NCBI GenBank assembly: GCA_029858565.1
Contig: JAOUEV010000032.1
Coordinates: forward strand, 1-40,383
DNA: 40,383 nt
From: Nitrospirota bacterium
Lineage (GTDB): Bacteria; Nitrospirota; UBA9217
Direction: 5' to 3'
The position numbers and the translations under genes are program-made. Under the pieces are notes generated by a model. That model ran no database searches and was not told the DNA's origin. It was given only the letters and a program-made list of their open reading frames with translations. How positions within the stretch are numbered: the first letter of the stretch is position 1; every line of letters starts with the position of its first letter. Shown piece by piece: positions 10,234 through 32,788 of the stretch.

Positions 10234-10263
10234 TTGACGCTGCACAGGTGCCATTGCTATACT
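10234..10263 (+). promoter_or_regulatory. Sigma70 promoter of the PilZ gene
   Basis: TTGACG-18 nt-TATACT with extended TGn. Confidence 0.6.
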
Positions 10264-10295
10264 TCACCCAGAGAATGACAGCGAGGTGGCTCGAA

Positions 10296-10700
10296 ATGGC
10301 GGATACACCGGCAGAACGCAGAGAGTTCATCAGGGTCCCGTTCAAGACCAACATCACGGTTCGCACTCCTGACCGGACGATCTGGCACAGCAATACCGCA
10401 GATATCAGTTTGACAGGATTGCGCGTCTATATCAGCGAGCCGCCGCCGCCCCTTGACACTCCCTGTGAGATCGAGATCGTTCTCTCGGAGACCGGCGAAC
10501 CGGTCATCATTGAAGCACGCGGGATCATCGTCCGATCGGATCCGGGCACGCTCGCTGTGCATGTAAGCGAGATCGACCTCGACAGTTATACCCACCTGAC
10601 CCAGCTGATCCTGAACAACGCCGGAGATATCGCACGGGCGGAGCAGGAAATATCCTCCCACCGGGGCATTCGGAAACCGCCCGCAGGTCCGGACACATAA
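10296..10700 (+). CDS. Stand-alone PilZ domain protein (c-di-GMP receptor)
   Basis: RREFIR (RxxxR) and DISLTG (DxSxxG); SD GAGGT before ATG 10296. Confidence 0.88.
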   Translation: MADTPAERREFIRVPFKTNITVRTPDRTIWHSNTADISLTGLRVYISEPPPPLDTPCEIEIVLSETGEPVIIEARGIIVRSDPGTLAVHVSEIDLDSYTHLTQLILNNAGDIARAEQEISSHRGIRKPPAGPDT

Positions 10701-10856: not shown

Positions 10857-11534
10857 CTAGGCTTTTGCGAGCACACCCTGATGCATACGCAGGCGCGTCT
10901 TGGCCCGTGCTGCCAGATCGGTATTATGGGTCACCATCATGAACGTGGTCCCCTGCTGCTCGTTCATGCGCAGGAAAAAGTCCATCATTTCCGCTTCGGT
11001 TTCCTCGTCCAGGTCTCCGGTCGGTTCATCAGCCAGGATCAGCTCCGGTCCGTTCATGAAGGCACGAGCGATCGCTACCCGGCGCTGCTGGCCGCCGGAA
11101 AGTTGCGCTGGATAGGCATTGATCTTGTCCCCCAGACCCACAGCCCGCAGCAACTCCTCGGCGCGCGCATCCATACCGTTGGAGGGTTGAACCGACCGGA
11201 AGGCAACAGGGAGAAGCAGGTTCTCCTTCGCCGTCAAAATGGGAAGCAGGCTGGCGGACTGGAACATGAATCCTATCTTTTCGCAACGGTACTCGGAAAG
11301 CTGGTCGCTGGTCCACGTATAGATGTTCTCGCCGTTGAACAGTATGTTCCCCTGCGTCGGGTTCACCATGCCCCCGATGAGGGAAAGCAGGGTCGTTTTG
11401 CCTGATCCCGAATGCCCCACAATGGACACGAACTCGCCCTTCGCGATGTCTGCGGAAGCGCCCCTGACCGCGGCAAGGGACTCGCTTCCCACCGCGTACT
11501 CCTTCGAAACATTGGTCAATACGATCTGGCCCAT
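10857..11534 (-). CDS. ABC transporter ATP-binding protein (LolD/MacB type)
   Basis: GHSGSGKT, LSGGQQRRVAIARA, ILADEPTGDLD, VTH. Confidence 0.95.
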   Translation of the reverse strand: MGQIVLTNVSKEYAVGSESLAAVRGASADIAKGEFVSIVGHSGSGKTTLLSLIGGMVNPTQGNILFNGENIYTWTSDQLSEYRCEKIGFMFQSASLLPILTAKENLLLPVAFRSVQPSNGMDARAEELLRAVGLGDKINAYPAQLSGGQQRRVAIARAFMNGPELILADEPTGDLDEETEAEMMDFFLRMNEQQGTTFMMVTHNTDLAARAKTRLRMHQGVLAKA

Positions 11535-11538
11535 ATCG

Positions 11539-12726
11539 TCACTCCGCCTTGATCACCGTGAGAGGTTCCAGTTTTTTCAGCCGCTGGATCGGCCCCAGCG
11601 CACCAAGGACGCAGATGAGCATCCCTCCGACAAAGCTGGCCAATGCAATGAGCGACCGTTCGGTCATCGACAGGTCTGTGGACAGCTGTTTCACGATCGT
11701 GAACCCCTTAGCGAGCACAACTGACAAGAACGATCCGAACAGGATCCCGAGGACGCTCCCCAAAACGCCGATGACGACCACCTCCGCCAGATAGAGGTTC
11801 ATGATGTGGGATTCCTTCGCCCCGATGGACCGCATGATGCCTACTTCCTTGGCCCGTTCGTTCGCGATCGCCGTAAAGATCGCCCAGACGAGGAAGAAAG
11901 ACATGATCGCTGCGAGGATGATCGTCATGGTGAAGATCCGGCTCATGTCCTTGAGCGTCGCAATGATGTTCTTGCCGATGTCCTTTCGCGCCATGGCATC
12001 GGCGTCAATGATCGTGTTCTCAACCTCCGCGGCAACCGTAGCCGGGTTGACGCCGGGATTCACCTTGACAAAGACAAGCGATATCTGGCCTGGCTTCACC
12101 GTGACCTTGCCGCTCTTGATGATGTCATTGAGGTTGTCTGTGGTGATAAAGACCGCGTTGTCCAGGCCCGTGCCGGTCTTGTCCATGGTCCCTACGATCT
12201 TGAACATGCTGCCGAAGAGCTTGCTGTCCACATCCACGAGGCCCAGGCGGATATTGAACGATGATTCGGACCCGGCCACGGCTTCGCCCTTCTTGAGCTT
12301 CCGTTTCAATTTCTCGATCAGCCAGGGACCGACGATGAAATCCGTATCCTGATTGTACGCCACGACCATCGCTTCAGGCACGGAACAGCACAGGGTTGCC
12401 AGCGTCACGAGATAGACCTGCTCAGTGACCGCGGCAACGCCGTTGATCGCGGCAACGCGGTCCATGATGCTCCTGTCCATATAAAAGGACTTGGTCTTGT
12501 TCTCGAGCAGGATTTCCTCCGTGGCGCCCCGGGCTCCGGTGGGCACAACGATCAGATCGGCGCCCAGCCTCTCCGAAGCCTTCCTGATGCTGCCGTTCAC
12601 GCGCTGCACGAAGGAAAGCGAGAAGACAAGCGCTGAGACCAGTAGCCCGATGGCAAAAACAAGGATAGCCGTCCGCGTCGGTTTACGCTTGATATTCTTG
12701 ACCGAAAAAGAAAGGAGTCGTGTCAT
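11539..12726 (-). CDS. ABC permease, MacB/LolE (FtsX) family, with Cys-Cys motif in the extracytoplasmic domain
   Basis: One N-terminal TM, large soluble domain containing LATLCCSV, ERAKEVGIMRSIGA, three C-terminal TMs. Confidence 0.9.
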   Translation of the reverse strand: MTRLLSFSVKNIKRKPTRTAILVFAIGLLVSALVFSLSFVQRVNGSIRKASERLGADLIVVPTGARGATEEILLENKTKSFYMDRSIMDRVAAINGVAAVTEQVYLVTLATLCCSVPEAMVVAYNQDTDFIVGPWLIEKLKRKLKKGEAVAGSESSFNIRLGLVDVDSKLFGSMFKIVGTMDKTGTGLDNAVFITTDNLNDIIKSGKVTVKPGQISLVFVKVNPGVNPATVAAEVENTIIDADAMARKDIGKNIIATLKDMSRIFTMTIILAAIMSFFLVWAIFTAIANERAKEVGIMRSIGAKESHIMNLYLAEVVVIGVLGSVLGILFGSFLSVVLAKGFTIVKQLSTDLSMTERSLIALASFVGGMLICVLGALGPIQRLKKLEPLTVIKAE

Positions 12727-12779
12727 AAAGTTCGCCTGTCAGATCAGTAGTGTATCCCGCTTTCGCAAGGCTTGGTTCT

Positions 12780-12808
12780 ATAATACCCGAAGAGCCCTCA
12801 GCACGCAA
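12780..12808 (-). promoter_or_regulatory. Probable sigma70 promoter for the ABC pair
   Basis: Minus strand TTGCGT-17 nt-TATTAT, ~55 nt upstream of the ATG at 12726. Confidence 0.45.
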
Positions 12809-12838
12809 GTAGCAAGCGTCCGTTGGCAGTGCATGGGC

Positions 12839-12874
12839 AAAAAAAACCTCTCCCCGCACAGCGCGGGGAGAGGT
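12839..12874 (-). terminator. Intrinsic terminator after the propeller gene
   Basis: Minus strand ACCTCTCCCCGC-loop-GCGGGGAGAGGT followed by a T run. Confidence 0.85.
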
Positions 12875-12902
12875 CGTTCCTTCGAAAAACAACGAACGAC
12901 GA

Positions 12903-14042
12903 CTACTTGTAATTCGCGTCGATGCCGCAAAGCACGGCATTCTTGTCGCCAAGACCCATGCCCTTGTGGCAGCCGAGACAAACCGAGATCTGTTTATCAA
13001 GGACCTTTTTATTGGCGGCATCATAGACCATGACCGTACCATCGGTGATGTCCACGGGCTTGCCGTCCTTTACGATCGCCTTTCCATCCGTATCGCAACC
13101 CTCGGTCACCGAGCGGATCGTCAGGAGCGCGTACTTGCTATCCGGAGTCGGCATGGCATCATGAAGCTGCGAGCCCTCAGGCATCATCTTTTCGTCCACG
13201 AGCGTCAGCTTCTTGGCATCGAGGACCCAAAGACGGTCGGCCACGGACTGCGTGATGTACTTGCCATCTGGCGTGAAGTACATCCGGAAGGTAATGCTGT
13301 TCTTCGGGTCGCCCTTCAGGGTGTTCTTGGCAAGGACCTTGAACTTGCCCTTCTCGAGCGATGCCATGTCCACAAGAACGAAATCGATCTCGCCGGTCGC
13401 ATTGCCGTCCTTCACCACGTTCATGGTCAGGAGGAAGGACTTCATGTCCGGCGAATTGATGCCGTGCACGAACTTATAGGAACCCTTTGCATAGCCGATG
13501 TCGCTCACGAACACACGATGCTTGTGCGCCAGGTCCTTCTTGTCGAACACGTCCACATAACCCTCGACACCCATGAACACCGGCATGAAGTATTCCTTGC
13601 TCTGGCCGGAGGCGCAGTACTTCGGGCCCTTGCCCACTGCACGCGCATCTGGATCGACCGCCAGGTCCTTGATCACCTTGCCGGTCTTGAGGTCGGTCTT
13701 GCCGACATGAATCTTACCGTTGGCGTCCAGCACGTAGGTGGACCAGAACATGACGTTCGAATCGTTCGTGTCGATCCGGGCGTCGTGGGTTGCATACTGC
13801 TTGTCGCCGATCACCACGCGGTCCAGGTTCTTGATCTTCACGGGTTCCGCTGCATTGCTGGGATCCACGGTCACATCAGCGGCGGCGAAATGTCCGCCCA
13901 TGCCAGCGACATATATCATTGCCGAATAGGTCGGGCCTGCGGCCACCGCCACCGGCGCCGAAACGGGCGCCACGGTGGTAAGGCCCAGATAGGCCACCAC
14001 GATCACTGCTACGATTCCTGCCAACACCGCATACTTTTTCAT
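12903..14042 (-). CDS. Exported or membrane-anchored probable beta-propeller protein with a single C-terminal CxxCH; function unknown
   Basis: Hydrophobic N-terminus; blade-like turns (SPDMK, TPDGKY, TPDSKYA); CLGCH near the C-terminus; SD AGGGGAG before ATG 14042; strong codon bias. Confidence 0.7.
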   Translation of the reverse strand: MKKYAVLAGIVAVIVVAYLGLTTVAPVSAPVAVAAGPTYSAMIYVAGMGGHFAAADVTVDPSNAAEPVKIKNLDRVVIGDKQYATHDARIDTNDSNVMFWSTYVLDANGKIHVGKTDLKTGKVIKDLAVDPDARAVGKGPKYCASGQSKEYFMPVFMGVEGYVDVFDKKDLAHKHRVFVSDIGYAKGSYKFVHGINSPDMKSFLLTMNVVKDGNATGEIDFVLVDMASLEKGKFKVLAKNTLKGDPKNSITFRMYFTPDGKYITQSVADRLWVLDAKKLTLVDEKMMPEGSQLHDAMPTPDSKYALLTIRSVTEGCDTDGKAIVKDGKPVDITDGTVMVYDAANKKVLDKQISVCLGCHKGMGLGDKNAVLCGIDANYK

Positions 14043-14232
14043 ATCAACGTCTCCCCTTTCCTTGTCTATGGTTTTTCTTGAGCGAGCCGGTCGATCAGGC
14101 TCACCGTCCAAACAACGATAATGCATGTTCAATCCGTTGGTTGCTAGTAACTGCCCCTCTCACCTCCTTTGGGAACGTCGGGTTCATCTTTCAGTGTAAC
14201 CAGTTAAGCATTATGACCGCACAAGGACCGGA

Positions 14233-14730
14233 TCAATTTCCCCCGTGCATCGGGATTTCTTTCGGCTTCTCGAATCGGACAGGCACCTGCAACTGACCGG
14301 ACCGCTCAAAGGTCAGGGTGAGCAGCATGTCCGAACCGTCCTGCACGGTCTTCGGCATATTGAACACCATGATATGGAGGCTTCTCGGCTTCAGCTCCAG
14401 GGTATCGCGGGACGGCACCTTCATCCGGTCTACCTTTACCATCTTGCCGTCCTTGATGTCGTGCAGTTCGACCGTCGCAGCGGGAATGTTCACAGACGCC
14501 GCCAGCAACGTGTCCCGGCCCCCGGCATTCTTGATCTTCATGAAGAGGGAGCCGACTCCAAAGAACATTGGCGACAGATTCGCGTACTGTCCTTCAACGG
14601 TGATCTGCGGAGGCTGCGACGTACACCCCGACCCCGCAAGAGTTACCAGGCTGAAAATAAGTATACCCACCGCCAGGAACAGGCTCCCGTTCCTGAATGC
14701 TGATAGATGCAACGAATAATTTTTAGACAT
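14233..14730 (-). CDS. Copper chaperone PCu(A)C
   Basis: VELH-x6-M...LKPRSLHIM copper motif, LTLTFERSG, N-terminal membrane or lipoprotein anchor. Confidence 0.88.
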   Translation of the reverse strand: MSKNYSLHLSAFRNGSLFLAVGILIFSLVTLAGSGCTSQPPQITVEGQYANLSPMFFGVGSLFMKIKNAGGRDTLLAASVNIPAATVELHDIKDGKMVKVDRMKVPSRDTLELKPRSLHIMVFNMPKTVQDGSDMLLTLTFERSGQLQVPVRFEKPKEIPMHGGN

Positions 14731-14993
14731 AATAATATAATGAAAGGCGCAACAATTTTCTTGAAAAAACAAACATCGTTATTGTCTTCAGGGTGCGGCA
14801 TTTTAGAACAGCCTCAACTACTAAGTCAACGTAAAATTCTAATTTTGCTTCTGCTATAGCGCTAGAATCGCTTACATTCGCTTATCCTGGCAAGCGTTAC
14901 TTCCGGTGATAAACCGCTTCTCAGAACAGGCTTTCTCTGCTACAATAGCTGTACAATATTTCGATATTTCTTAACTGAAAGGAGATCGACCAT

Positions 14994-15419
14994 ATGGTTC
15001 AGAAGGCAAGTACTGCACTGACCGACATGATGCAGCAGGCGATCGCCCGGGAGATCCAGGTGAGCGTTCAGTATATGTGGCAGCATATCATGGCCAAGGG
15101 GCTGGAGTCGGCCGAGATCGCCGACGTGTTCGAGGAAGTCGCCGTGGCCGAGATGAAGCACGCGGAGAAGATCGCCGAACGGCTCTTCTATTTCGATGTG
15201 GTTCCCACGACCAAGCCGTCGCCGATCAAGGTAGGCGGCTCGCTCAAGGAAATGCTGGAAGCCGATGCTCTTGCGGAAGAAGAGGCTATCGAACTCTACA
15301 AAGCGATCGTCAAGCAGGCTGATTCGGAGGGGGACAGCACGACGCGGCTGCTGTTCGAGCAGATCCTGTCAGACGAAGAAGAGCACCACGACCAGTTTAC
15401 CACGCTCTTGGGCAGATAA
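14994..15419 (+). CDS. Ferritin-like (bacterioferritin-related) di-iron protein
   Basis: E...QY, EMKHAE, EEEAI.LY, DEEEHH ferroxidase motifs; SD AAGGAG. Confidence 0.9.
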   Translation: MVQKASTALTDMMQQAIAREIQVSVQYMWQHIMAKGLESAEIADVFEEVAVAEMKHAEKIAERLFYFDVVPTTKPSPIKVGGSLKEMLEADALAEEEAIELYKAIVKQADSEGDSTTRLLFEQILSDEEEHHDQFTTLLGR

Positions 15420-15494: not shown

Positions 15495-16238
15495 TTACAG
15501 CTTGCCAGGACTGTAGATCCTCTCAAGGAGCTTCCGGTCGTCAAGGACCTTGTCATGGAGCCAGGGCATATACTCCAGGGTCACCACCCCGCCCCAGTTC
15601 AGTTCCTGCAGACGATCAAGGATGTCCATGCAGAATCCGTCGCGATCGATGGGCTGATGTTTGCGGGCAATGCCCTTCAGCTCCCGGTCGCGGATTACCG
15701 CTGACAGGTGTAGGTTCACGATGTGGGTGTGGTAGGTCTCAATGACCCAGGTGATCTCGGACTTCGGCAGCCGCGACGTATCAAGCACCATCGGCAACTG
15801 ATGGCTCATGATCAGGTCCGGAGGCAGCACCCGCTTTTTGTCCCAGAAGGTCTCCACGGCAATGGTCACCTTGGTACGGTCCTGCAGGTGTTGGATATTG
15901 TCCAGCACCGGCTGGTGTTCTTCCTTCTTCCTTCCGGCTGCCGCGATCTCGGGGTGGAGCACGACAATGCCCGCGTTGACCGCTTCCGCAAACTGAACCG
16001 TCCTCCCCGCCCAGTCAAGAAAAGCATCGTCAGCAAGATTGCCGTCAGCAGCGTGGACAGAGAATACGGGAACCCGGTAGGAACGCACCTGCTTTTCGAC
16101 CTCGGCTAGACGATCGCGGCCGTGCTGGAACTCATCAACGTCCGAAGGGAACGCCAGTTCGATCGGGACGCCCTCGAGCTTCTTCAGCCGGGCGTTGCTG
16201 TTGGAAAACTCGATCTGTCGTCGGACACAAAATCGCAT
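15495..16238 (-). CDS. Xylose isomerase-like TIM barrel (sugar phosphate isomerase/epimerase family)
   Basis: FSVHA, VVLHP, IAVET, LDTS, NLHLS, H-QP, VTLEY metal-ligand pattern. Confidence 0.75.
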   Translation of the reverse strand: MRFCVRRQIEFSNSNARLKKLEGVPIELAFPSDVDEFQHGRDRLAEVEKQVRSYRVPVFSVHAADGNLADDAFLDWAGRTVQFAEAVNAGIVVLHPEIAAAGRKKEEHQPVLDNIQHLQDRTKVTIAVETFWDKKRVLPPDLIMSHQLPMVLDTSRLPKSEITWVIETYHTHIVNLHLSAVIRDRELKGIARKHQPIDRDGFCMDILDRLQELNWGGVVTLEYMPWLHDKVLDDRKLLERIYSPGKL

Positions 16239-16902: not shown

Positions 16903-17130
16903 TCAGGACGATTGCGGCTTCGGGCGCGGAGCCGAACCGAACGAGCGCGAACGCCGGAGCAGTTTCCGCTTGCGTTTCTCTGCCTCCAGCTGCTTCCGCT
17001 TCTTTTTCACCGAGGGCTTCTCGTAATGACGCCGCGCTTTCAGCTCGCCAAACAAGCCGTCGAGCTGCAGCTTCTTCTTCAGCGTCCTGAGCGCCTTCTC
17101 GATGTCCCGGGAAAGTACCCTTACCTCCAC
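16903..17130 (-). CDS. rpsU: 30S ribosomal protein bS21
   Basis: IEKALRTLKKK...RRHYEKPSVKKKRK; GTG start overlaps the upstream gene by 10 nt. Confidence 0.93.
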   Translation of the reverse strand: MEVRVLSRDIEKALRTLKKKLQLDGLFGELKARRHYEKPSVKKKRKQLEAEKRKRKLLRRSRSFGSAPRPKPQSS

Positions 17131-17480
17131 GATCGCTTCTTTCCGCCGCCGCCACCGCCGCCGTATCCGCCCCGGTCCCTGTCTCCGCCACCGTATCCAC
17201 CACCACCGTATCCGCCCGATCGGGGCCGGTCGGTCTTCGGACGGGCCTCGTTCACCGTGATCGTCCGATCGAACAATGTCGTTCCGTTCATCGTGCTGAT
17301 GGCCTTTTCCGCATCTTCATTGTTCGCCATTTCTACGAATCCAAATCCCTTGGACCTGCCGTTGGTCTGGTCGATGATCAATGTTGCCGACTGGACCTCG
17401 CCGATCTTGGCGAAGGCCTCGCGCAGGTCATCTTCGGTAGTGCTGTACGACAGATTTCCGACATAAAGCTTTTTTGCCAT
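17121..17480 (-). CDS. RRM RNA-binding protein with Gly-rich tail
   Basis: RNP2 LYVGNL, RNP1 KGFGFVEM, VNEARP, GGYGGG repeats. Confidence 0.95.
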   Translation of the reverse strand: MAKKLYVGNLSYSTTEDDLREAFAKIGEVQSATLIIDQTNGRSKGFGFVEMANNEDAEKAISTMNGTTLFDRTITVNEARPKTDRPRSGGYGGGGYGGGDRDRGGYGGGGGGGKKRSWR

Positions 17481-17581: not shown

Positions 17582-18793
17582 CTACCTGCGCCATGCCTCG
17601 CGACGCCCCTGCATGCCTGTTCCCGCTCCGCGATAGGAGGATTGCCGGCGACGTCCGCTCTGCGGCTCGAGGCCGGGCAGAACGTGACGGGGCAGGCTCT
17701 TCCCGATGTACCGTTCGATCCGCTGGAGCGAATCGATCTCCCGGCCGGAAACGAAGGAAATGGCGATCCCCGACGCGCCGGCCCGACCGGTACGTCCGAT
17801 CCGGTGCACGTAGTCCTCGGCATTCTTCGGCAGATCATAATTGATGACATGGGTGATCCCGGAGACATCGAGTCCCCGTGCCGCGACATCGGTTGCGACC
17901 AGGAGGCGAACGTTGCCCCTCCGCATCTTCGTGATCGCACGGTTCCGCGCGCCCTGCGTCATGTCGCCGTGCAGCGCTTCGGCTGCATGTCCCTGCTCCG
18001 CCAGTTCGCGCGCGAGCTGGTCGGCATGGCGTTTTGTGCTCGAAAAGATGATGGCCTTGGTCATGGCCGTATCCGCGATGAGCCGGTGCAGCATCTTGCT
18101 TTTATGCTGCATGTCGTCGGCGGTGTGAAGCCGCTGTTCGATGGTCTCGAGGGTCCGCTGCTTGCCGGCAATGGCGATCCGCTCCGGCTCCTTGAGAAGC
18201 CGCTTTGCCAGTGTTTCCATTGCCCGGTCCCACGTCGCAGTGAACAGCAGGGTCTGACGATCAGCAGGCGTAGCCGCCGTGATGGTCTGGACCGCCTCGC
18301 TGAATCCCATATCAAGCATACGGTCCGCTTCGTCCAGGACCAGCAGTTCGAGGCGCGAGAAATCCACACGTCCGCGTTCCAGGTGGTCGATCAGCCGGCC
18401 CGGTGTTGCGACCACAAGATCAACAGGCTGGGACAGAAGGCGCTGCTGCTCGTAATACGGAACACCGCCGAGGATCGCTCCGCTCCTGATGCGCATGAAC
18501 CGTCCGTAGGTACGTACGGCATCGCTCACCTGGTTTGCGAGTTCCCGCGTCGGTGTGAGCACTAGCACGCGGGGTCCCTTGCCCCGTCGTGAGGGGGGAA
18601 TACCGATACGCTGAAGCGCCGGAAGCACAAATGCTGCGGTCTTGCCGGTGCCGGTCTGGGCCGTGGCGATAAGATCGCGGCCCGCCAGCGCACGGGGGAT
18701 GGCCTGCGACTGGATCTCCGTGGGTTGCGTGTATCCGCACATTTCGATGGCCTTGAGAATAGGTGCTGAGAGTTCAAGCGAGGTAAAAGACAT
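17582..18793 (-). CDS. DEAD-box RNA helicase (RhlE-like)
   Basis: Q motif, TGTGKT, PTRELA, DEAD, TAT, TDVAARGLD, HRIGRTGRAG; SD TAAGGAG before ATG 18793. Confidence 0.96.
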   Translation of the reverse strand: MSFTSLELSAPILKAIEMCGYTQPTEIQSQAIPRALAGRDLIATAQTGTGKTAAFVLPALQRIGIPPSRRGKGPRVLVLTPTRELANQVSDAVRTYGRFMRIRSGAILGGVPYYEQQRLLSQPVDLVVATPGRLIDHLERGRVDFSRLELLVLDEADRMLDMGFSEAVQTITAATPADRQTLLFTATWDRAMETLAKRLLKEPERIAIAGKQRTLETIEQRLHTADDMQHKSKMLHRLIADTAMTKAIIFSSTKRHADQLARELAEQGHAAEALHGDMTQGARNRAITKMRRGNVRLLVATDVAARGLDVSGITHVINYDLPKNAEDYVHRIGRTGRAGASGIAISFVSGREIDSLQRIERYIGKSLPRHVLPGLEPQSGRRRQSSYRGAGTGMQGRREAWRR

Positions 18794-19050
18794 GGTTCTC
18801 CTTAGAAAGCGCCGCAGAGGGGGGATGGGTCCGCGCGCGGTGCGGGTAAAGGCGCATGCCGCAGGAACGCACCGCGTCCCTGAAACGATTACGGCAACAG
18901 CACCACGATGACAAACTTGGTACACATCGTTCGCCAACTGAGCATGCTGTCGCTTCTTTTACCGGAGAAAAGGGGAGAGCAGGAGAAGTCAGTGATCGAT
19001 GATGAGAGCCGGCCGCATCCAAGGCACAGCCTCATACTGATAGGTACGGC

Positions 19051-22664: not shown

Positions 22665-25238
22665 CTACATGAGCTTGGAGCGTATTCCCTCAAAATCTTT
22701 CCCCTTCGGCATGATGAACAGCCCCTTGCCGCTGCTTCGCGCTTCCCACAGCTCGCCAAGCCTGCGCTTTTCGGCGTTATCCGGCAGGTCCCAATCACGG
22801 CTGTTCTTATACTCCACGACGAGAATACGGCCATCATCCAGTTTGCAGACGAAGTCCGGATAGAAGCGGTCGGTCGCGGTCTGCAGGGAAAAAGAAGTCG
22901 GCTTGCGCTCCACATTGCGCACCCAATATTTCAATCCCGGAAGCTGCGTTGAAAGAAACAGGGCGCACTCAAACTCCTCGCCCGAGGCTTTCAGGTTCCC
23001 GATCTCCGGGAAGAAGTGCTTCGGCAGTTCCACGAAACCCTGGTAGGAATCATCGAATGCATACCGGCCATGTTGAAAAACCATCTCGCAGCTGCCGTCT
23101 GCGATGAATTGCTCGGGCACAAGCAGCATCTGCTGGTGTATACCGGCCATTGCTTGTTGTTTTGCTTCTGTGATCTTGTTTTCGAGCACCGCGCGCAGGC
23201 GGAACTTGGCGTAGCTCAATTCCTCTAACGAAAACCCCCGAGTGGTGATCAGCCAGGACACCGCCTTGTCGAGAAATGCGGCTTTCTCGTCCGGTAGAAT
23301 GCTTTCGTCAGGAATATTCCGCTCAAGCCAGGAAACAAGCTGCACCTGATCCCATCCTATTGCAATATCAAGCAAAGCCAGCTGCGCTTCGATATTGTCG
23401 ATATATTCGAACTTGATACTCTCCTCGCGAATAAAGAACCGGCCGCCTTGCGCCGCGAGTTGCGGTTTCTTAAACTCCGTCTCGGTCACTTCGCAAGGAA
23501 AATCCAGCAAACGCCATTCGCCCTGCAGAAGGTGGGTTTCCTCAAAAGGTTCCCACAGATCACCTTGACGCAGCGCAAGAAGCGGCACGCGGAACAATTC
23601 GCCCTGTTCGGACGGCGTTTTCTGGCGGGGAGCCGCGGGCGTCTTCAACCTGACCAGCGCAAGACGGATTGACTCTTTTCCTTCCGGCGTCTGAAATACG
23701 CCTTCCAGTGCTTCAGCTTGTTTTGCGGAAAAGCTGCCTTTGATCGTGATGGTTCCCATTTCAGGGGCTATTTCGATCTTATTGGTCAGTCCAGCAGGAA
23801 TTGCCTCGGGCGCGGGCAGCTCCGGCGCGCTGAAGGTAAGACCTGCCGACAGCGTGAAGAGATCTTCCGTTCCCGGTTCATCCACTGCATGGATGAGGTC
23901 ATTTGTTTCCTGCCGTTCGAACCCGTTCCGCACAAGGCCATCGCGAAGACTTGCCACGGTCGCCTGGAAATTGGTCGAGGTGATGAATGCGTATGCTTCG
24001 TTCAATTCCGTGCGCGTCTTACGGCTGGCTTTTGGCATGCGGAGAATGCGGCCGAGAATCTGTTCAGCCGCTGTCGCGGACTCGGTGTTTCGGAATGAGC
24101 AAAGCACGTACGCAAAAGGGCAGTCCCAGCCTTCGCGCAGTTTGTCGATCGTGATAATGAACCGTTTGCTCGATTTGTCGGACAACACATCCTCGCCCGC
24201 AAGGTCGTCCACGGCCCCGGTTGCGATCGCAATCTCGCCTTCAGGAACGCTGAAGTCGTCGATCAGAGCCTGTTTAACCTTCTCCGGAGTCAGGGTTTCA
24301 TGTTCAGCGCTGTGACGCTCGGCCTGGAGCAGCATAATAGGCCGCAAATATTCCCCGGTTGCCGCCTTTTCCGCGTCAGCCGCCGCCTGAAGTTTGTTAA
24401 GACAGGCGATTGCGTCCCGCAAGGCGTCCTGCCAGTTCTCCCGCCGTACTAGCTCCAGCGGCATCTTGATCATCTCAGCGGCCTGAAGCGACGACGCGCC
24501 GACGCTGTAGAGCACATTGCTCGGTTGGCGAATGCGGTCTGGTGTTGCCGTCAGTTCGAGGATCGCGCTCGGCTCGAACCGGGCAAGCGTCTCGAAAGCA
24601 AGCAGTGTACCTTGGTTGTGCGCCTCGTCAACGATTACGAAGGGCCGCCGCATCCGGATAGCGTCCACGAACGACTGATTCCCCACAATGCGCGGGTCCG
24701 TGATCCCCTCAAAATGCGATTGCATGTCGCTGTTCTGCTTGTAGACGTTCAGCCGCGCCATGTCCTCCTGCTTGAATGCCTGCATGGTTGCAACAATAAT
24801 TGCGTTCGTTGCATTCAGCACATGTGGCTTGACCCGCAGGGCCTCATCCAGGTCCATGACCGTTACTTCACCCAGCGCGGAGAAGACGACTTGGTGCAGA
24901 AGGTTGGTCGGTGTACGGAGCGCCCGCAGGGTCTGTTCGCGGATGGGCTCGGAAGGAACCAACCAAAGCGTCACGCTGTAACGGGTGAACAGCAGGCTCT
25001 TGTTCGCACGCTCAATCGCCAAGCCGCCGATCAGCGTCTTGCCGCCGCCGGTGGGGATGCGCAGGCAGACATAGGGGACTTGCGACAGCGTCGACAGAGC
25101 GCGATAGGTCAGCCTGACACCCCGCCATTCCTCCGTGGTATCTTCGTAGGCTTTGCGTGGGTCGTTGCTCAGTTTGCAGCGCTTGAAAAACGCTTCAAGT
25201 CTGTCCAGCGCCTCGGATTGGTATGCTTTGAGAATCAT
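22665..25238 (-). CDS. res: Type III restriction enzyme Res subunit (SF2 helicase plus PD-(D/E)xK nuclease)
   Basis: PTGGGKT, DEAH, TATP, LREGWDCP, QILGRILR, FYPDF...VEYK; ATGA overlap with mod. Confidence 0.92.
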   Translation of the reverse strand: MILKAYQSEALDRLEAFFKRCKLSNDPRKAYEDTTEEWRGVRLTYRALSTLSQVPYVCLRIPTGGGKTLIGGLAIERANKSLLFTRYSVTLWLVPSEPIREQTLRALRTPTNLLHQVVFSALGEVTVMDLDEALRVKPHVLNATNAIIVATMQAFKQEDMARLNVYKQNSDMQSHFEGITDPRIVGNQSFVDAIRMRRPFVIVDEAHNQGTLLAFETLARFEPSAILELTATPDRIRQPSNVLYSVGASSLQAAEMIKMPLELVRRENWQDALRDAIACLNKLQAAADAEKAATGEYLRPIMLLQAERHSAEHETLTPEKVKQALIDDFSVPEGEIAIATGAVDDLAGEDVLSDKSSKRFIITIDKLREGWDCPFAYVLCSFRNTESATAAEQILGRILRMPKASRKTRTELNEAYAFITSTNFQATVASLRDGLVRNGFERQETNDLIHAVDEPGTEDLFTLSAGLTFSAPELPAPEAIPAGLTNKIEIAPEMGTITIKGSFSAKQAEALEGVFQTPEGKESIRLALVRLKTPAAPRQKTPSEQGELFRVPLLALRQGDLWEPFEETHLLQGEWRLLDFPCEVTETEFKKPQLAAQGGRFFIREESIKFEYIDNIEAQLALLDIAIGWDQVQLVSWLERNIPDESILPDEKAAFLDKAVSWLITTRGFSLEELSYAKFRLRAVLENKITEAKQQAMAGIHQQMLLVPEQFIADGSCEMVFQHGRYAFDDSYQGFVELPKHFFPEIGNLKASGEEFECALFLSTQLPGLKYWVRNVERKPTSFSLQTATDRFYPDFVCKLDDGRILVVEYKNSRDWDLPDNAEKRRLGELWEARSSGKGLFIMPKGKDFEGIRSKLM

Positions 25239-26854
25239 AGTGCGTCGACCCGTAGTTTGTAGGGTAGCTGCTTAAAGACAATCTTCTCCCGCCGTAGCCG
25301 CTCCTGCCCAATCCGGCAGGCAGTGCCGTAGATCACCTTCGGCCCATCGTGCTTCGGCAGGTGAGCAAGAATCGCCGTGGTCAGCACATTCCCGCCGTCC
25401 GGCGCCTTGTCCTTCAGAATACCGTTATAGAGGAGATAGACGCCGAGGCCGTTGTACACGCCGATCAAGGGATTGTTCGACTTGGCCTGCTTCGGAAGCG
25501 GCTCGCCGGTTTCGGTGAAGAAGACATGACGGGCAAGGTCGGCAAAGCGAACAGTGTTCCGGATATTCCCGCGCTCGTCGAACAACGGCTCGCCAAGAGT
25601 GGCGAACCTGAATCCGCCGCCAAGCCCAGCAACCTTTTCACCTTTGGCATTCTTGTACCCTTCAGCAACACGCGTCATACGCATTGCCGTAATCTTTCTG
25701 CATATAGATGAATCGAGCTCGACGAGAATTGACCGCCGGCTACCGCCATCATCTTGGTTCATCTTGAATACAGCGTGTCCCGTAGAACCCGATCCTGCAA
25801 AAGAATCGAGGATGAGAGAATCTTTATCAGTTGATATAGATAATATTCGCTGTAAGAGTCTTGTTGGTTTTGGTGTAATAAAGACAGCAGCCGAGTCTTC
25901 AAAATCACAAACTGACAGCAATTCCTTCTTAGCTTCCTGCGTATTACCAACTTCAGTATGAAACCAGATCGTTTCTGGGACGACTCCTTCTTTGACCTCA
26001 CTGAGAAATCTTTTTAGTCGAGGCATATTATTACCCGTTTCGCCCCACCAAATACGATTATCTTTATCCAGTGACTTGAAGTTGTCCTCTGACACGCCCC
26101 AATAACGCCCCTTTGGCGGAGCCGCTATCACACGGCCAGATGGGCATGTAACAGAATAAGTTCCAAGACTGTAATAGTTCCTTGCTGACAAGTCACTCGA
26201 AGTCCACTGCCCTCTTGGATCACCATCAGGATTCTTGTATCTCGAATCCTGCTCGGCCGTTCTCATGATCAATTTGGGCTTCCAGATTGCCGCATTCTTT
26301 GCATAGAGCACGACATAATCATGGCTTTCTGAAAGATGTCTTGCCGAATTCTTGGGTGAAAATATCTTTTGCCATATAATCGTCGCCACGAAGTTATTCT
26401 TTCCGAATATCTCATCCATGACAGCCCGCAGATTCTGGACTTCGTTATCGTCAATGCTGATAAAAATCGCACCATCGTCGCGGAGAAAATGCCAGAGCAG
26501 GGCAAGGCGTGGATACATCATGCAAAGCCACTTATCATGCCGAGTTAAGTCTTCACCTTCACCCCCGACAGTCTTGCTGAGCCACTCCCGCATCTCCGGG
26601 CTGTTCACATTATCGTTGTAAATCCAGTTTTCATTGCCCGTATTGTACGGCGGATCGATATAGATGCACTTCACCTGCCCCGAGTAGTACGGAAGCAGGG
26701 CTTTGAGCGCGAGAAGGTTGTCCCCTTCGACTAGCAGATTGCCGCTGCCGGGATCGCCAACGGACAGCGATGGCTCCTCCTTCAGCAGATGAAACGGCAC
26801 CTGCTTGTGATGGTTTTCAACCGCTTTTCTTCCTATCCAGTTCAGAGTGGGCAT
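25235..26854 (-). CDS. mod: Type III Mod subunit, beta-class amino DNA methyltransferase
   Basis: EGDNL, IYIDPPYNTG, central TRD, TPKP, ILDSFAGSGSTG. Confidence 0.93.
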   Translation of the reverse strand: MPTLNWIGRKAVENHHKQVPFHLLKEEPSLSVGDPGSGNLLVEGDNLLALKALLPYYSGQVKCIYIDPPYNTGNENWIYNDNVNSPEMREWLSKTVGGEGEDLTRHDKWLCMMYPRLALLWHFLRDDGAIFISIDDNEVQNLRAVMDEIFGKNNFVATIIWQKIFSPKNSARHLSESHDYVVLYAKNAAIWKPKLIMRTAEQDSRYKNPDGDPRGQWTSSDLSARNYYSLGTYSVTCPSGRVIAAPPKGRYWGVSEDNFKSLDKDNRIWWGETGNNMPRLKRFLSEVKEGVVPETIWFHTEVGNTQEAKKELLSVCDFEDSAAVFITPKPTRLLQRILSISTDKDSLILDSFAGSGSTGHAVFKMNQDDGGSRRSILVELDSSICRKITAMRMTRVAEGYKNAKGEKVAGLGGGFRFATLGEPLFDERGNIRNTVRFADLARHVFFTETGEPLPKQAKSNNPLIGVYNGLGVYLLYNGILKDKAPDGGNVLTTAILAHLPKHDGPKVIYGTACRIGQERLRREKIVFKQLPYKLRVDAL

Positions 26855-27574: not shown

Positions 27575-28327
27575 TTACCCGGCGGCGCAGATCCCTATCC
27601 GATGCTCGTCGCCCACTGAAGTCGCCGGCATCTCATCCCACGTTCTTCCTTCGAGCGTTCTTCCTGCGGTTTTCTTCCTCACCCCGCCCCACTGCTTGAA
27701 GAAAAACGGCACCCTTGCCTTTTTACATTGATCGCGAATATCCGTCACCCATGCCGGGTTCATAGACCGCGCGCCAGGGCCGGATTCGCCGCCGACAATG
27801 ACCCAATCAATGCCGTCGAGATTCATATCCGGAATCGGCCCAAGCAGCGGCTCGATTGAAAGAAATTTCACGAATGCACCGGATTCTCGGAGAGAGTCTA
27901 TGCGATGTGCATAATCGCCGTTCTCAACAGTTACGCCCATCCAGATGTTCGAGGCCCATGGCAACTCCCGATGCAGTTCGAGCAATCTATCCGCCCGCTT
28001 TGTAAGAACCTGGAAGGTATGCCAGTGCGCGCGATTCATAACGTCAAAGACTTTCTGTATAAAAGACAAGGGAACGTCCTTCAAGAACAAGTCGCTCATA
28101 GAATTCACAAAGATCGTCTGCGGCTTTTTCCACTTGAGAGGCAGTTCCAAGGCGCGCTCATGCATGGCAAGTTTGAACCCATTGGCGTAATTCGGCTGGC
28201 CCATGGCCTGCAGCCGCTTCGCCATCCGTTCGGCGTAACAGTGCACGCATCCCGGGCTGATCTTGACGCAGCCGGTAACCGGATTCCAAGTGGACCCTGT
28301 CCATTCGATGGCGGATTTCTGACCCAT
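27575..28327 (-). CDS. DUF5131 (phage Gp37/Gp68) family protein, radical-SAM-like Cx6Cx2C
   Basis: [61 protein letters not shown]. Confidence 0.93.
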
Positions 28328-29203: not shown

Positions 29204-30541
29204 CTAATCCGCCGCTCTCCGCAAATACGCCGGCTTGTCCAGGTCCGACTTCGTGCCCCCGAAGAGATCGAAGGTCGTGTCCTGCACTTCCTGCCGCCGC
29301 TTCACCGCGGGTTTCTCGATCACCGCGCGCTGCTCCTTCTGGATGAACTCCCTGAGGCTCGACGGCTGCTTCACCCGGCTTTTGATGCCTTCCTCGTCGA
29401 ATCCCGTGGCGATCACGGTCACCATCAGTTCCTCGCTCATGTTCTTGTTGATCACCATGCCGAAGATGATATTCGCGTCAGGGTCCACTTCCGCCTTGAT
29501 CACGCCGGTCGCTTCCTCAAGCTCCAGGATACCCAGGTCGCTTCCGCCGGTTATATTGATCAGCACCGCGCGGGCTCCCTTGATGGATCCGTCCTCGATC
29601 AGCGGGCTTGAGATCGCTTTGTGCGCCGCATCCACTGCCCTGCCGGGGCCCTTGGCCATGCCCATGCCCATCACGGCGCGTCCGCGGTTGGCCATCACGG
29701 TCTTGACGTCGGCGAAGTCCACGTTCACGTGGCCCGAGACCAGGACGACATCGGAGATCCCCTTGACCGCCTGCATCAGCACGTCGTCGGACATCTTGAA
29801 GGCCTCCTGGGCCAGGGTGTTCTTTTCCGACAGGTTGATAAGCCGGTCGTTGGGGATGACGATGAGCGCGTCCACGTTCTTCTTCAGCTCGGCGATCCCT
29901 TCTTCGGCGTGGCGCATGCGCCGCACTCCCTCAAATCCGAAGGGTTTCGTTACCACGCCGACGGCCAGGGCGCCGACCTCGCGCGCCAGTTTCGCGATCA
30001 CCGGCGCGGCGCCGGTCCCGGTGCCGCCGCCCATGCCCGCGGTGATAAACACCATTTCGGCCCCTTCCAGCACGCCGCGGATCTTGTCACCGTCCTCGAG
30101 AGCGGCGTTCCTGCCCGTCTCGGGATTCGCCCCCGCGCCCCGTCCCCGGGTGAGCTTGGACCCGATCTGGAGCTTGTTCGTTGCATTGACCCGGTCAAGC
30201 GCCTGCCGGTCGGTGTTCGCCGAGATGAACTCAACACCCTCGATGTTGGCCTGCACCATGGTGTTCACTGCGTTGCCGCCGCCGCCGCCGACTCCGATCA
30301 CCTTGATCCGGGCCGGCAGCTTTTCCTCGTCAGCGAACTGGAGCGCCACGGCGTCGTCGCTGACGCTGTCCGTGCTTCCAGTCGGCAGGGGCAAGGGGTC
30401 CTCGAACCGGAGCGGTGCGACACCTGCCCCGCCCGCGCTCGCATGCTCCGCGGCATGCAGGTTCATGATGTCCTCGAAGGGGAACTCCAGGGTCTCATCC
30501 TTGTGCCGGTCTCCCGGCGGAACGTGGGCCTCAGTCGTCAT
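29204..30541 (-). CDS. ftsZ: Cell division protein FtsZ with long N-terminal extension
   Basis: IKVIGVGGGGGNAV, GMGGGTGTG, NVDFADV, C-terminal LDKPAYLRR. Confidence 0.98.
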   Translation of the reverse strand: MTTEAHVPPGDRHKDETLEFPFEDIMNLHAAEHASAGGAGVAPLRFEDPLPLPTGSTDSVSDDAVALQFADEEKLPARIKVIGVGGGGGNAVNTMVQANIEGVEFISANTDRQALDRVNATNKLQIGSKLTRGRGAGANPETGRNAALEDGDKIRGVLEGAEMVFITAGMGGGTGTGAAPVIAKLAREVGALAVGVVTKPFGFEGVRRMRHAEEGIAELKKNVDALIVIPNDRLINLSEKNTLAQEAFKMSDDVLMQAVKGISDVVLVSGHVNVDFADVKTVMANRGRAVMGMGMAKGPGRAVDAAHKAISSPLIEDGSIKGARAVLINITGGSDLGILELEEATGVIKAEVDPDANIIFGMVINKNMSEELMVTVIATGFDEEGIKSRVKQPSSLREFIQKEQRAVIEKPAVKRRQEVQDTTFDLFGGTKSDLDKPAYLRRAAD

Positions 30542-30596
30542 TGCGCACCGTCCTTTCCTTGCTTATCGTCTTCACCGCGCATTGCTCCCGCGCAGA

Positions 30597-31817
30597 TCAC
30601 AGATACTCGCCAAGCCATTTCCAGAGCCGGTTCATTATCCCGCCGTGCAGGAACCGCCCCTGCACCGGCTGGTGGTTCTCGGCGCCGTAGAGCACCAGCC
30701 CGACGCCGGTCGCGTAGATCGGACTGTTCACCACATCCATGAGCCCGCCGATGTTCTTGGGTCCGCCCCGCCGGATCGGCATGCCCAGATACTTCTCCGC
30801 GGCATCCTGCATCCCTTCCATGAGCGCCGTACCGCCCGTCAGCACGATGCCCGACGCGATCATGTCCTCGGAACCGGTGCTCTTGAGCCTCTGCAGCACC
30901 AGTTCGAACAGTTCGGCCACCCGGGGCTCGATGATCTCGCACAGGATCTGCCGCGACAGGAGCCGCGGCGGCCTGCCGCCCACGCTTGCGACCTCGATCG
31001 AGTCCTCGTGCTTGACCATGGCCGCGAGCGCGCACCCGTGCCTGATCTTGATCTTCTCGGCCTCGGACGAGGGCGTGCGCAGACCGATCATGATGTCGTT
31101 CGTCACATGGTTCCCGCCGACCGGCAGCACGCCGGTGTAGAAAAGGCTGCCTTCGCGGAACAGCGCCATGTCCGTGGTCCCGCCGCCGATGTCCACCACG
31201 GCAACGCCGATCTCCTGCTCCTCGCTCGTCAGGACCGCCCGTGACGACGCCAGCGGCTGCAGCACCACGTCGCTCACATCGAGCCCCGCGCGCGAGCAGC
31301 TCTTGACGATATTCTGGATCGCCGTGACCGCGCCGGTGATGATATGGACCTTGACGTCCAGCCGCGTCCCGGACATGCCCAGCGGCTCCTTGATCCCGTC
31401 CTGGTCGTCGATGATGAACTCCTGGGGCAGCACATGAAGGATCTGCTGGGTCCCGGGGATGTCGATGGAACGCGCCGTGTCGATCGCGCGGGCGATGTCC
31501 GCCTGCCCCACTTCACGGTTCTTGATGGATGCGACGCCCTGGGACTTGAGCCCCTTGATGTGGTCCCCCGAGATCCCGACGTAGACCGAGTTGATCTCGA
31601 CCCCGGCCATGAGTTCAGCTTCTTTTACTGCCTTCTTGATGGATTCCACCGTGCTGTCGATGTTCACCACCACGCCCTTCTTCAGGCCGTGCGACGGACT
31701 GATGCCGATGCCGATGATGTCCACGCGGCCGTCGTCCTTTACCTCGCCGACGATGGCGCAGACCTTCGTCGTCCCCAGATCGAGACCGACAATGATGTTC
31801 TCCGGTTTTTTCGCCAT
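30597..31817 (-). CDS. ftsA: Cell division protein FtsA
   Basis: GLDLGTTK, DIGGGTTD, VLTGG, amphipathic C-terminal WKWLGEYL. Confidence 0.97.
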   Translation of the reverse strand: MAKKPENIIVGLDLGTTKVCAIVGEVKDDGRVDIIGIGISPSHGLKKGVVVNIDSTVESIKKAVKEAELMAGVEINSVYVGISGDHIKGLKSQGVASIKNREVGQADIARAIDTARSIDIPGTQQILHVLPQEFIIDDQDGIKEPLGMSGTRLDVKVHIITGAVTAIQNIVKSCSRAGLDVSDVVLQPLASSRAVLTSEEQEIGVAVVDIGGGTTDMALFREGSLFYTGVLPVGGNHVTNDIMIGLRTPSSEAEKIKIRHGCALAAMVKHEDSIEVASVGGRPPRLLSRQILCEIIEPRVAELFELVLQRLKSTGSEDMIASGIVLTGGTALMEGMQDAAEKYLGMPIRRGGPKNIGGLMDVVNSPIYATGVGLVLYGAENHQPVQGRFLHGGIMNRLWKWLGEYL

Positions 31818-32764: not shown

Positions 32765-32788
32765 CTGTTCCTCGTCTCTTGTCGCCCG

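Follow-up and report, generated by a model that had tools for sequence, protein, structure and literature searches.

X379, a propeller protein with a c-type haem motif encoded with copper chaperones and a MacB-type ABC pair, as a candidate haem-copper oxidoreductase

A 40,383-nucleotide stretch of DNA from a Nitrospirota bacterium (GenBank assembly GCA_029858565.1, contig JAOUEV010000032.1, positions 1 to 40,383; the whole stretch is called the window below) carries on its minus strand four genes arranged head to tail, which encode a PCuAC-type chaperone, an exported protein of 379 residues, a MacB/FtsX-type permease and an ATP-binding cassette (ABC) ATPase. We suggest that the exported protein, labelled X379 here (12903-14042, minus strand), is a propeller oxidoreductase containing haem c and copper that is served by a chaperone and a MacB-type assembly machine of its own, a reading that we regard as having about an even chance of being correct. 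It builds on the gene content, fold, conservation and linkage of the module. The features of the locus, in the direction of transcription, are:

14800..14829, minus strand: sigma-70-like promoter match TTGACT-18-TAAAAT upstream of the PCuAC gene; 10 of 12 positions match, a consensus match only
14233..14730, minus strand: PCuAC-family Cu(I) chaperone (Pfam PF04314, 1.8e-19); open reading frame (ORF) open to 14772; probable lipoprotein
12903..14042, minus strand: X379, predicted from a structural model and conservation to be a beta-propeller that is exported and anchored by its N-terminus; family without a name; CxxCH at residues 355-359
12845..12875, minus strand: intrinsic-terminator-like hairpin between X379 (27 nt after its stop codon) and the ABC genes
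11539..12726, minus strand: type VII (MacB/LolCE/FtsX-superfamily) ABC permease (Pfam FtsX and MacB_PCD; fold matches)
10857..11534, minus strand: LolD/MacB/FtsE-type ABC ATPase (Pfam ABC_tran, 2e-35)

An earlier annotation made from the letters of the window (the sequence-only reading) had described these four co-oriented genes, all of which we recovered on the minus strand, and had remarked that the window holds no oxidase or nosZ gene; indeed, neither appeared among the 38 window ORFs (8 + 30) scanned against Pfam. The X379 ORF extends to 14132 from a TTG, yet homologues begin at MKK, and we therefore place the start at the ATG at 14042. The N-terminus is a hydrophobic helix without a twin-arginine, i.e. 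a Sec-type signal, and since there is no Tat motif the cofactors of X379 must go in within the periplasm. Neither Pfam nor NCBIfam contained a match to X379, no PDB chain was retrieved by phmmer (best E 0.22), and a profile of the family gave marginal, blade-level matches to PDB sequences (E 0.006-0.3). Thus no full-length match to a characterised family was found in Pfam, NCBIfam or the PDB by sequence or by profile, in agreement with the sequence-only reading, which had been unable to place the protein in any named family. In addition, a search of the ESM Atlas with X379 returned only unnamed clusters and generic YncE/cytochrome-d1/lactonase-like propellers, and literature searches (PCuAC with propeller, FtsX, MacB or NosL) turned up no paper on the family.

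Among 8000 candidates scored, 912 were homologous to X379 at E <= 0.001. The best 120 of these share 64-78% identity with it, carry no Pfam domain and are called 'hypothetical protein' wherever a source gives a name. The family is small, with 128 representatives at 50% clustering, 55 of them at E <= 1e-30. X379 is encoded by a single-copy gene in the window's genome and was matched in 70 of 401 sampled genomes of the same phylum at E <= 0.001 (52 at E <= 1e-50, counted from the table); in a second phylum, that of a Desulfobulbaceae metagenome-assembled genome, 5 of 301 genomes had a match at E <= 1e-20. Several distant members have lipoprotein-type N-termini, as read from the alignment, and some relatives are fused to the extracytoplasmic modules caspase (Peptidase_C14), fn3 or Big_2. 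Forms with such an N-terminal fusion are P0121, P0123, P0166, P0197, P0203 and P0229; several forms of 720-830 residues have N-terminal halves for which we have no explanation.

An AlphaFold model of X379 built from 33 sequences (predicted local distance difference test [pLDDT] 92.1, predicted template modelling score [pTM] 0.86) showed a beta-propeller with 23 full strands and one short strand, which we read as six blades of four strands each, with the C-terminal strand closing the ring. Searches by fold likewise returned propellers, led by six-bladed YWTD domains (1npe: Z 25.8, root-mean-square deviation [rmsd] 2.5, 256 residues aligned), so that the propeller proposed from the sequence alone is borne out. 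The best match to an enzyme was thiocyanate dehydrogenase (Z 20.4-21.5, rmsd 3.4-3.8, 278-287 residues, 15-17% identity), and hydrazine synthase beta, YncE and NosZ matched at Z 19-20.

Conservation was computed over 142 full-length members. The CxxCH motif, which had also been picked out from the sequence alone, lies at residues 355-359 and is invariant in 142/142 members; it would attach a haem through C355, C358 and H359. Conserved at >= 99% are H51, H86, D87, R89, C143, S145, M157, K168, Y189, H193, D199, F252, R253, H294, D295, R310, D334, S353, C355, C358, H359 and C372. The earlier label 'His-rich' was overstated in that X379 has eight His in 379 residues, five of which (H51, H86, H193, H294 and H359) belong to this conserved set. 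Going by the secondary-structure string of the model, the first, innermost strands of the blades appear to carry C372, H86, C143, H193, R253 and H294, which would thus form a ring around the hub. In the divergent member P0155 (32% identity), H86, C143, M157, H193, R253 and C372 are all replaced, while CxxCH, H51, H294, D295, R310 and D334 are kept. Because of this joint loss, the conserved residues can be divided into a haem-side group and a His2-Cys2-Met(+Arg) group, and the His2-Cys2-Met set (H86, C143, M157, H193 and C372) is a candidate copper site. According to PMC6530538, CuA sites contain two bridging Cys plus His and Met, and a part in the maturation of CuA is ascribed to PCuAC and SenC. 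Residues of these kinds (two Cys, two His, one Met) are conserved at >= 99% in X379 and all five are changed in P0155, in a fold that is not a cupredoxin.

To follow the neighbourhood, we compared 35 further X379 loci from two phyla, 4 of which came from a related-contig search and 31 of which were cut from genomes. The cognate permease gene followed that of X379 on the same strand in 29 of the 35 and the ATPase gene in 28, with one locus stopping at a contig edge, and X379 identities across the loci with ABC linkage were 42-73% in the two phyla. As the order recurs in 29 of 35 other loci it is far beyond chance, and the homologues are linked to this ABC pair as the sequence-only reading had anticipated. 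The six loci without the pair fell into two kinds. Three encode distant homologues (L054, L099 and L100; 38-43% identity) and three are second X379 copies (L047, L048 and L105) in genomes that carry the ABC pair at their other copy.

The conserved synteny also outweighs the presence of a terminator between X379 and the ABC genes. The hairpin there, which has a 14-bp stem with nine G-C pairs, a 3-nt loop and a following T8, agrees with the terminator noted before; the separate promoter that had been placed between it and the ABC genes was not recovered, as the promoter scan listed no promoter-like site between the X379 gene and the ABC genes and one upstream of PCuAC. Counts of promoter-like sites were not above those in shuffled sequence (4 versus 2.4 +/- 1.6, and 3 versus 3.7 +/- 2.0 [region]). 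Judged by its sequence, the hairpin may cause partial termination, giving more propeller transcript than ABC transcript.

The linkage to copper chaperones that had been anticipated was also found. A PCuAC gene lay on the same strand within 3.5 kb of X379 in 13 of the 35 loci, and NosL was encoded beside X379 in L046, L051, L053 and genome G202, adding two loci to those with PCuAC; the order in G202 is NosL-PCuAC-X379. In L099, a 408-residue dihaem variant of X379 without the ABC pair is followed directly by SCO1/SenC and PCuAC genes. At least one copper-chaperone gene (PCuAC, NosL or SCO1) was thus present in 15 of the 35 loci. Other neighbours recurred less often. FtrD-like/DUF2318 (PF10080) genes were found in 4 of the 35 loci, after the ATPase gene in L043 and L049 and nearby in L045 and L046. 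Five X379 loci contain a second FtsX/ABC pair, with NosL or FtrD-like genes beside X379 (L046, L050-L053). Multihaem ORFs were no more than 6 kb away in 10 of the 35, a TPR protein was encoded upstream of PCuAC in three loci, DUF4418 neighbours were seen in two, and ChaN, a TonB receptor and MtrB/PioB in single loci each.

The permease scored 69.9 bits with Pfam FtsX and 39.7 bits with MacB_PCD. Its model (pLDDT 76) has four transmembrane (TM) helices and a periplasmic domain, as in type VII ABC transporters; consistently, the FtsX domain is C-terminal and the periplasmic domain sits between TM1 and TM2. Fold matches were to LolE (Foldseek 7.6e-16), MacB (5.8e-15), a pneumococcal MacB-like protein and the haem exporter HrtB. 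The top scores of the ATPase were with LolD, MacB and FtsE models, all below cut-off (NCBIfam LolD 215.4 versus 307.75 bits). The sequence-only reading had spoken of a Cys-Cys ABC system, and the pair C113-C114 is indeed real: together with C372 of the permease it is invariant in 16/16 X379-linked permeases and missing from 4/4 'second' permeases of the same loci. In the periplasmic domain, Cys-Cys falls within residues 109-117, the loop modelled with the lowest confidence (pLDDT < 50).

A paralogous permease in the window's genome (31% identity) has Cys-Cys at the aligned place. It belongs to a module without a propeller, with the order permease-NosL-ATPase-CAP protein (G000:C18:28702-32111; L102 6703-10112). 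The association of Cys-Cys permeases with Cu(I) chaperones is therefore a more general one, and the adjoining NosL gene supports a copper role of the ABC pair. The earlier idea that X379 has its own ABC maturation kit thus stands as to linkage and is weakened as to exclusivity, given this propeller-less Cys-Cys module in the same genome. The same genome also holds an FtrD-like (DUF2318) gene that directly adjoins an FtsX/ATPase pair without Cys-Cys (G000:C135:23449-25758), and five FtrD-like matches overall.

The PCuAC ORF spans 14233-14772, with an internal ATG at 14730 as the likely start. Its product scored 70.1 bits with Pfam PF04314 (cut-off 29.4; 1.8e-19) and is probably a lipoprotein, given the lipobox-like LAGSGC read from its sequence. 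PCuAC proteins bind Cu(I) through the motif H(M)x10Mx21HxM. The window protein has H104-x6-M111-x21-H133-x-M135, in which the first spacing (x6) is shorter than the x10 of that motif.

Which enzyme this chaperone serves was assessed from the gene content of the genomes. COX1-family matches occurred in 254 of 401 genomes, including 63/63 of the window's family. The window's genome (100% complete) has two full oxidase-type COX1 genes outside the window and the window PCuAC as its only one; neither a COX2 match nor a CuA motif was found in it, and no SCO1 match exceeded the cut-off. Five X379 genomes were detailed (G157, G202, G031, G220 and G142). A full-length COX1, a COX2 and a NosZ CuA motif are missing from all five (for COX1, G202 gave no match and the other four gave only frames of 143-150 residues, 150 in G157). 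G202 and G157, both 100% complete, encode one PCuAC each, and in both this sole PCuAC lies inside the X379 operon, which argues that the X379 module, not an oxidase, is its client.

The short COX1-like frames form a set of their own, of 135-150 residues with weak COX1-family matches: G000:C97:2905-3069 in the window's genome, G157:C11:39000-39380, G031:C3:50801-50968, G220:C3:6023-6295 and G142:C32:4147-4596. In G142 the distance from this frame to the genome's NosL gene is about 200 bp. The set may encode small membrane proteins with a link to copper.

Based on these results, we infer copper binding with its ligands, haem attachment, a role for the ABC pair and catalysis as parts of the following mechanism. 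X379 would be a periplasmic, membrane-tethered oxidoreductase in which one covalent c-type haem (Cys355, Cys358, His359) serves as electron entry or exit, and in which His86, Cys143, Met157, His193 and Cys372 form a copper centre at the propeller hub, the ligand kinds being those of a CuA or type-1 site. The protein would be exported unfolded through Sec, receive its haem in the periplasm and then be loaded with Cu(I), donated by the lipoprotein PCuAC in the window and by NosL or SCO1 plus PCuAC in other lineages. ATP hydrolysis in the cytoplasm by a homodimeric MacB-type ABC machine would move the periplasmic domain, whose mobile Cys-Cys loop may hand copper to the propeller or keep the target thiols ready, by a logic analogous to that of NosDFY-NosL acting on NosZ. 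The terminator after the X379 gene would ensure a high ratio of enzyme to machine. As to the substrate, a small inorganic sulfur or nitrogen compound is our guess. In its most specific and correspondingly speculative form, which we offer only tentatively, the proposal is that of a new class of periplasmic haem-copper enzymes in anaerobic Nitrospirota and Desulfobacterota, with a CuA-like His2-Cys2-Met centre on the hub of a six-bladed propeller, wired by a c-type haem, supplied with Cu(I) from PCuAC/NosL through the Cys-Cys loop of a MacB-type relay, and catalysing a sulfur or nitrogen redox step.

Several observations weigh against the proposal that X379 is a haem-copper oxidoreductase with a dedicated machine. 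Its fold matches are generic, with YWTD propellers outscoring every enzyme, and the profile matches to thiocyanate dehydrogenase are marginal (E 0.04-0.3) and cover one blade. The joint-loss argument for a copper group comes from one sequence, P0155, and C143-C372 could be simply a disulfide. In 20 of the 35 loci no copper-chaperone gene was found in the flanks (three of these loci, L003, L004 and L098, are cut by contig ends), and the FtrD-like/DUF2318 partners in four loci recall an iron system. Moreover, in most X379 hosts PCuAC could serve a haem-copper oxidase. Finally, because a permease-NosL-ATPase module without a propeller exists, this type of ABC pair is not exclusive to the propeller and may have a general copper role.

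These points lead to two alternatives that keep part of the proposal. In one, which we consider rather unlikely, the module is a copper-trafficking device: the ABC pair and X379 would collect periplasmic copper, reduce it via the haem or pass it to PCuAC/NosL for the benefit of cuproenzymes such as cbb3-type oxidases, with X379 as a redox-active holder or adaptor in the position that MacA has relative to MacB. The propeller-less permease-NosL-ATPase module in the window's genome fits this picture, as do the second FtsX/ABC pairs with NosL or FtrD-like genes by X379 (L046, L050-L053), the lack of any membrane-fusion or TolC-type partner in the flanks scanned and the COX1 matches in 63/63 genomes of the window's family, by which oxidases are available for PCuAC. 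However, X379 is also encoded by genomes that lack a full oxidase, COX2 and NosZ motif, where such a device would have no known client; the 64-78% identity among the best 120 homologues, together with invariant polar hub residues, suggests an active site more than an adaptor; and the ABC-less second copies and the SCO1/PCuAC-linked variant indicate that X379 can do without an adjacent ABC pair. The other, which we hold to be improbable, dispenses with copper altogether. X379 would be a haem-only propeller enzyme or cytochrome whose hub residues bind haem and substrate, with C143-C372 as a structural disulfide and the ABC pair as a mechanical activator (FtsEX-like) or an extruder of haem or substrate (HrtBA-like), the chaperone genes being its neighbours owing to some other cause. 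CxxCH is, after all, the sole cofactor motif that can be read directly and is invariant, the conserved R89, K168, R253 and R310 could hold haem propionates, HrtB is among the permease fold matches, and 20 of the 35 loci lack a copper chaperone. Yet genes of three copper-chaperone families turn up repeatedly in the operon in different lineages, two genomes that lack a full oxidase have their only PCuAC gene there, and P0155 loses His, Cys and Met together while retaining the haem motif.

We give hardly any credence to two further explanations, each of which likens the module to a known system. That it handles iron, as a relative of FetABCDEF of P19/Ftr1 iron uptake, is suggested by the FtrD-like (PF10080) genes that come after the ATPase gene in L043 and L049 and are close to it in L045 and L046, by the ferritin-like gene divergent from PCuAC in the window and close relatives, by ChaN, the TonB receptor and MtrB/PioB in single loci, and by the need for Campylobacter jejuni FetA and FetBCD under iron limitation, as stated in the available portion of PMC10783030. 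Against this, FTR1 or P19 was found in none of the flanks scanned (150 + 42 ORFs), FtrD-like genes occur in only 4 of the 35 loci and conservation of the ferritin gene does not extend beyond the window's own family. Equally far-fetched in our judgement is the idea that X379 belongs to the lactonase-type (clade III) nitrous-oxide reductases as a truncated or minimal form, with haem c in the place of CuA. Clade III clusters are reported to lack nosDFYL and to include a MacB-type ABC (PMC13685413, as far as its accessible text goes) and to occur in Nitrospirota and Desulfobacterota (PMC13477213, likewise in part), X379 and CuA-motif genomes do not overlap (0/22, 0/52), and one blade aligned by hhalign puts H294 on the GxHH of NosZ. 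The probability of that alignment is just 67% over 60 columns, though, and X379 is too short, lacks CX2FCX3HXEM and has a single His at the required motifs and four hub His, not seven; in addition, the genuine clade-III-like genes of the phylum (581-601 residues) encode a different protein and have no X379-type permease near them.

The X379 family, with 64-78% identity among its best 120 homologues and hundreds of metagenomic lineages, has no name, domain model or structure, yet its genes occur together with those for copper chaperones and a dedicated machine driven by ATP. If X379 binds copper as proposed, it would provide a new scaffold for a Cys/His/Met copper centre; the ABC pair would be the second independent example, next to NosDFY, of an ABC mechanotransducer by which a metal site is built in the periplasm; and the sulfur- and nitrogen-cycling bacteria of anaerobic sediments and groundwater would gain a redox activity not assigned so far. 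The module further suggests a role, open to testing, for MacB-type permeases of the Cys-Cys subfamily, and it may illuminate the MacB-type genes reported near nosZ of clade III and, in iron-uptake clusters, the FtsX-type FetBCD.

Around the module, a ferritin-like/bacterioferritin-type gene (14994-15419, plus strand) is divergent from PCuAC and adjoins a gene for a xylose-isomerase-like TIM barrel with a weak CbiR-like match (15495-16238, minus strand); both are kept beside the module only within the window's own family (L002, L035, L038 and L041). On the other side, a PilZ-domain gene (10248-10700, plus strand) lies directly downstream of the ATPase gene on the opposite strand and has the same place in the same-genus locus L035, and GGDEF/EAL genes come after the ATPase gene in L003 and L004. 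Farther away, the window encodes a small RNA-binding protein of the RRM type whose tail is rich in glycine and arginine (17121-17480, minus strand) next to a DEAD-box helicase (17582-18937), and a Type III restriction-modification pair (ResIII helicase-type subunit and N6/N4 DNA methylase; 22665-26854 and 27575-28327, both minus strand) that adjoins a DUF5131 gene in a region of lower G+C (0.50-0.56). Its high-G+C right part contains long ORFs of 345-669 residues without a Pfam match (29235-31244, 32519-33556 and 34689-36143, plus strand), some of which may be wrong-strand shadows.

Among known systems, LolCDE, MacB, FtsEX and HrtBA share the permease fold and domain order with the X379 module, and the window ATPase is LolD-like. 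The window permease differs from them in its periplasmic Cys-Cys and in that MacA/TolC, EnvC or a second permease gene is not encoded nearby. An assignment of the pair to LolCDE was rejected, with 28.6 versus 362.45 bits for NCBIfam lolCE, 215.4 versus 307.75 bits for LolD and one permease gene; so was a MacAB-TolC pump, as no HlyD-type gene was found in the module or the scanned flanks and one OEP gene in L044 only. In the FetABCDEF part of the FetMP (P19/Ftr1) cluster, too, an FtsX-type ABC and a Cys-rich DUF2318/FtrD-like membrane protein together serve a periplasmic metalloprotein; C. jejuni FetA (DUF2318 + YHS) and FetBCD (FtsX-type ABC) are all required under iron limitation, in the part of PMC10783030 that is accessible. 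X379 loci differ in lacking Ftr1, P19 or a thioredoxin pair, in having one permease gene, not two, and in having a propeller haem protein in the place of P19. A Fet-like iron system was rejected on the absence of FTR1/P19 from the flanks scanned (150 + 42 ORFs) and the presence of FtrD-like genes in 4 of the 35 loci only.

Thiocyanate dehydrogenase, a tricopper enzyme (PDB 5f75, 8q9x and 8z75) with its copper site at the propeller hub, is the best solved enzyme match to the fold of X379, although this match is weak and tied with those to non-enzyme propellers. Its PDB entries are named Tat-signal proteins, whereas X379 has no twin-arginine. To our knowledge, it contains no haem and no Cys ligands. 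As far as we know, too, every CuA centre is housed in a cupredoxin fold, whereas that of X379 is proposed to lie at a propeller hub. Otherwise the assembly of CuA by Sco/SenC and PCuAC offers a close parallel, in that the same chaperone families are encoded with X379 and the candidate ligands are alike (two Cys, two His and one Met; PMC6530538, available in part).

For NosZ, the published filter requires 400-900 residues and the motifs CX2FCX3HXEM, DXHH/GXHH, PHG, GPLH and EPH (preprint 10.64898/2026.07.10.737647), and a lactonase-type (clade III) protein should also match Pfam Lactonase/YNCE/nos_propeller plus cupredoxin. The CuA motif CX2FCX3HXEM is missing from X379 and from all open frames of at least 120 residues in the window's genome and the loci searched with it, and the His motifs of X379 are single (GGH51F, TH86D, VH193G and LH294D) and do not match those of the NosZ CuZ site. 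By hhalign, X379 and NosZ could be aligned over one blade only (probability 67%, 60 columns), with H294 on the NosZ GxHH motif. We therefore rejected X379 as a NosZ of any clade, including the lactonase-type clade III, for its 379 residues (< 400), missing motifs and lack of a Pfam match. A source on lactonase-type clade III nosZ is reportedly He et al. (2025, Nature 646:152), known to us through citing papers. The clusters of clade III resemble X379 loci in their phyla (Nitrospirota and Desulfobacterota; PMC13477213), in the lack of nosDFYL and in a reported MacB-type ABC component (PMC13685413), both sources being available in part. Candidate clade-III-like NosZ genes were found in other families of the phylum (L086 8420-10225, L087 7159-8913, L088 5687-7432 and L089 6947-8335). 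Their products have 581-601 residues where complete, a variant CuA motif and the Pfam domains YNCE, Lactonase, nos_propeller and Cupredoxin_1; their flanks encode cytochrome b, mono-haem cytochromes c, Vgb_lyase-type propellers, thioredoxin and DsbD, and neither X379 nor an X379-type permease was near them in these four loci. A role of X379 as a NosZ accessory was rejected as well, since none of the 22 CuA-motif genomes (of 401) was among the 52 strong-X379 genomes, the lists being compared by eye; with about three overlaps expected by chance and relatives not independent, this non-overlap is only suggestive.

The analogy to NosZ drawn in the sequence-only reading thus fails at the level of sequence, where X379 departs from NosZ in everything tested, and survives at the level of organisation. 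X379 has no cupredoxin/CuA domain and a CxxCH haem motif in that place, a hub with four conserved His and two Cys versus the seven His of NosZ, six blades as we read them versus seven, a Sec-type signal unlike that of NosZ, and a MacB/type VII ABC pair in place of NosFY with NosD. In both the NosZ/NosDFY-NosL system and the X379 module, a periplasmic propeller with a metal site at its hub, a putative one in X379, is encoded alongside a lipoprotein Cu(I) chaperone and an ABC machine, and in some X379 loci NosL itself takes the place of PCuAC.

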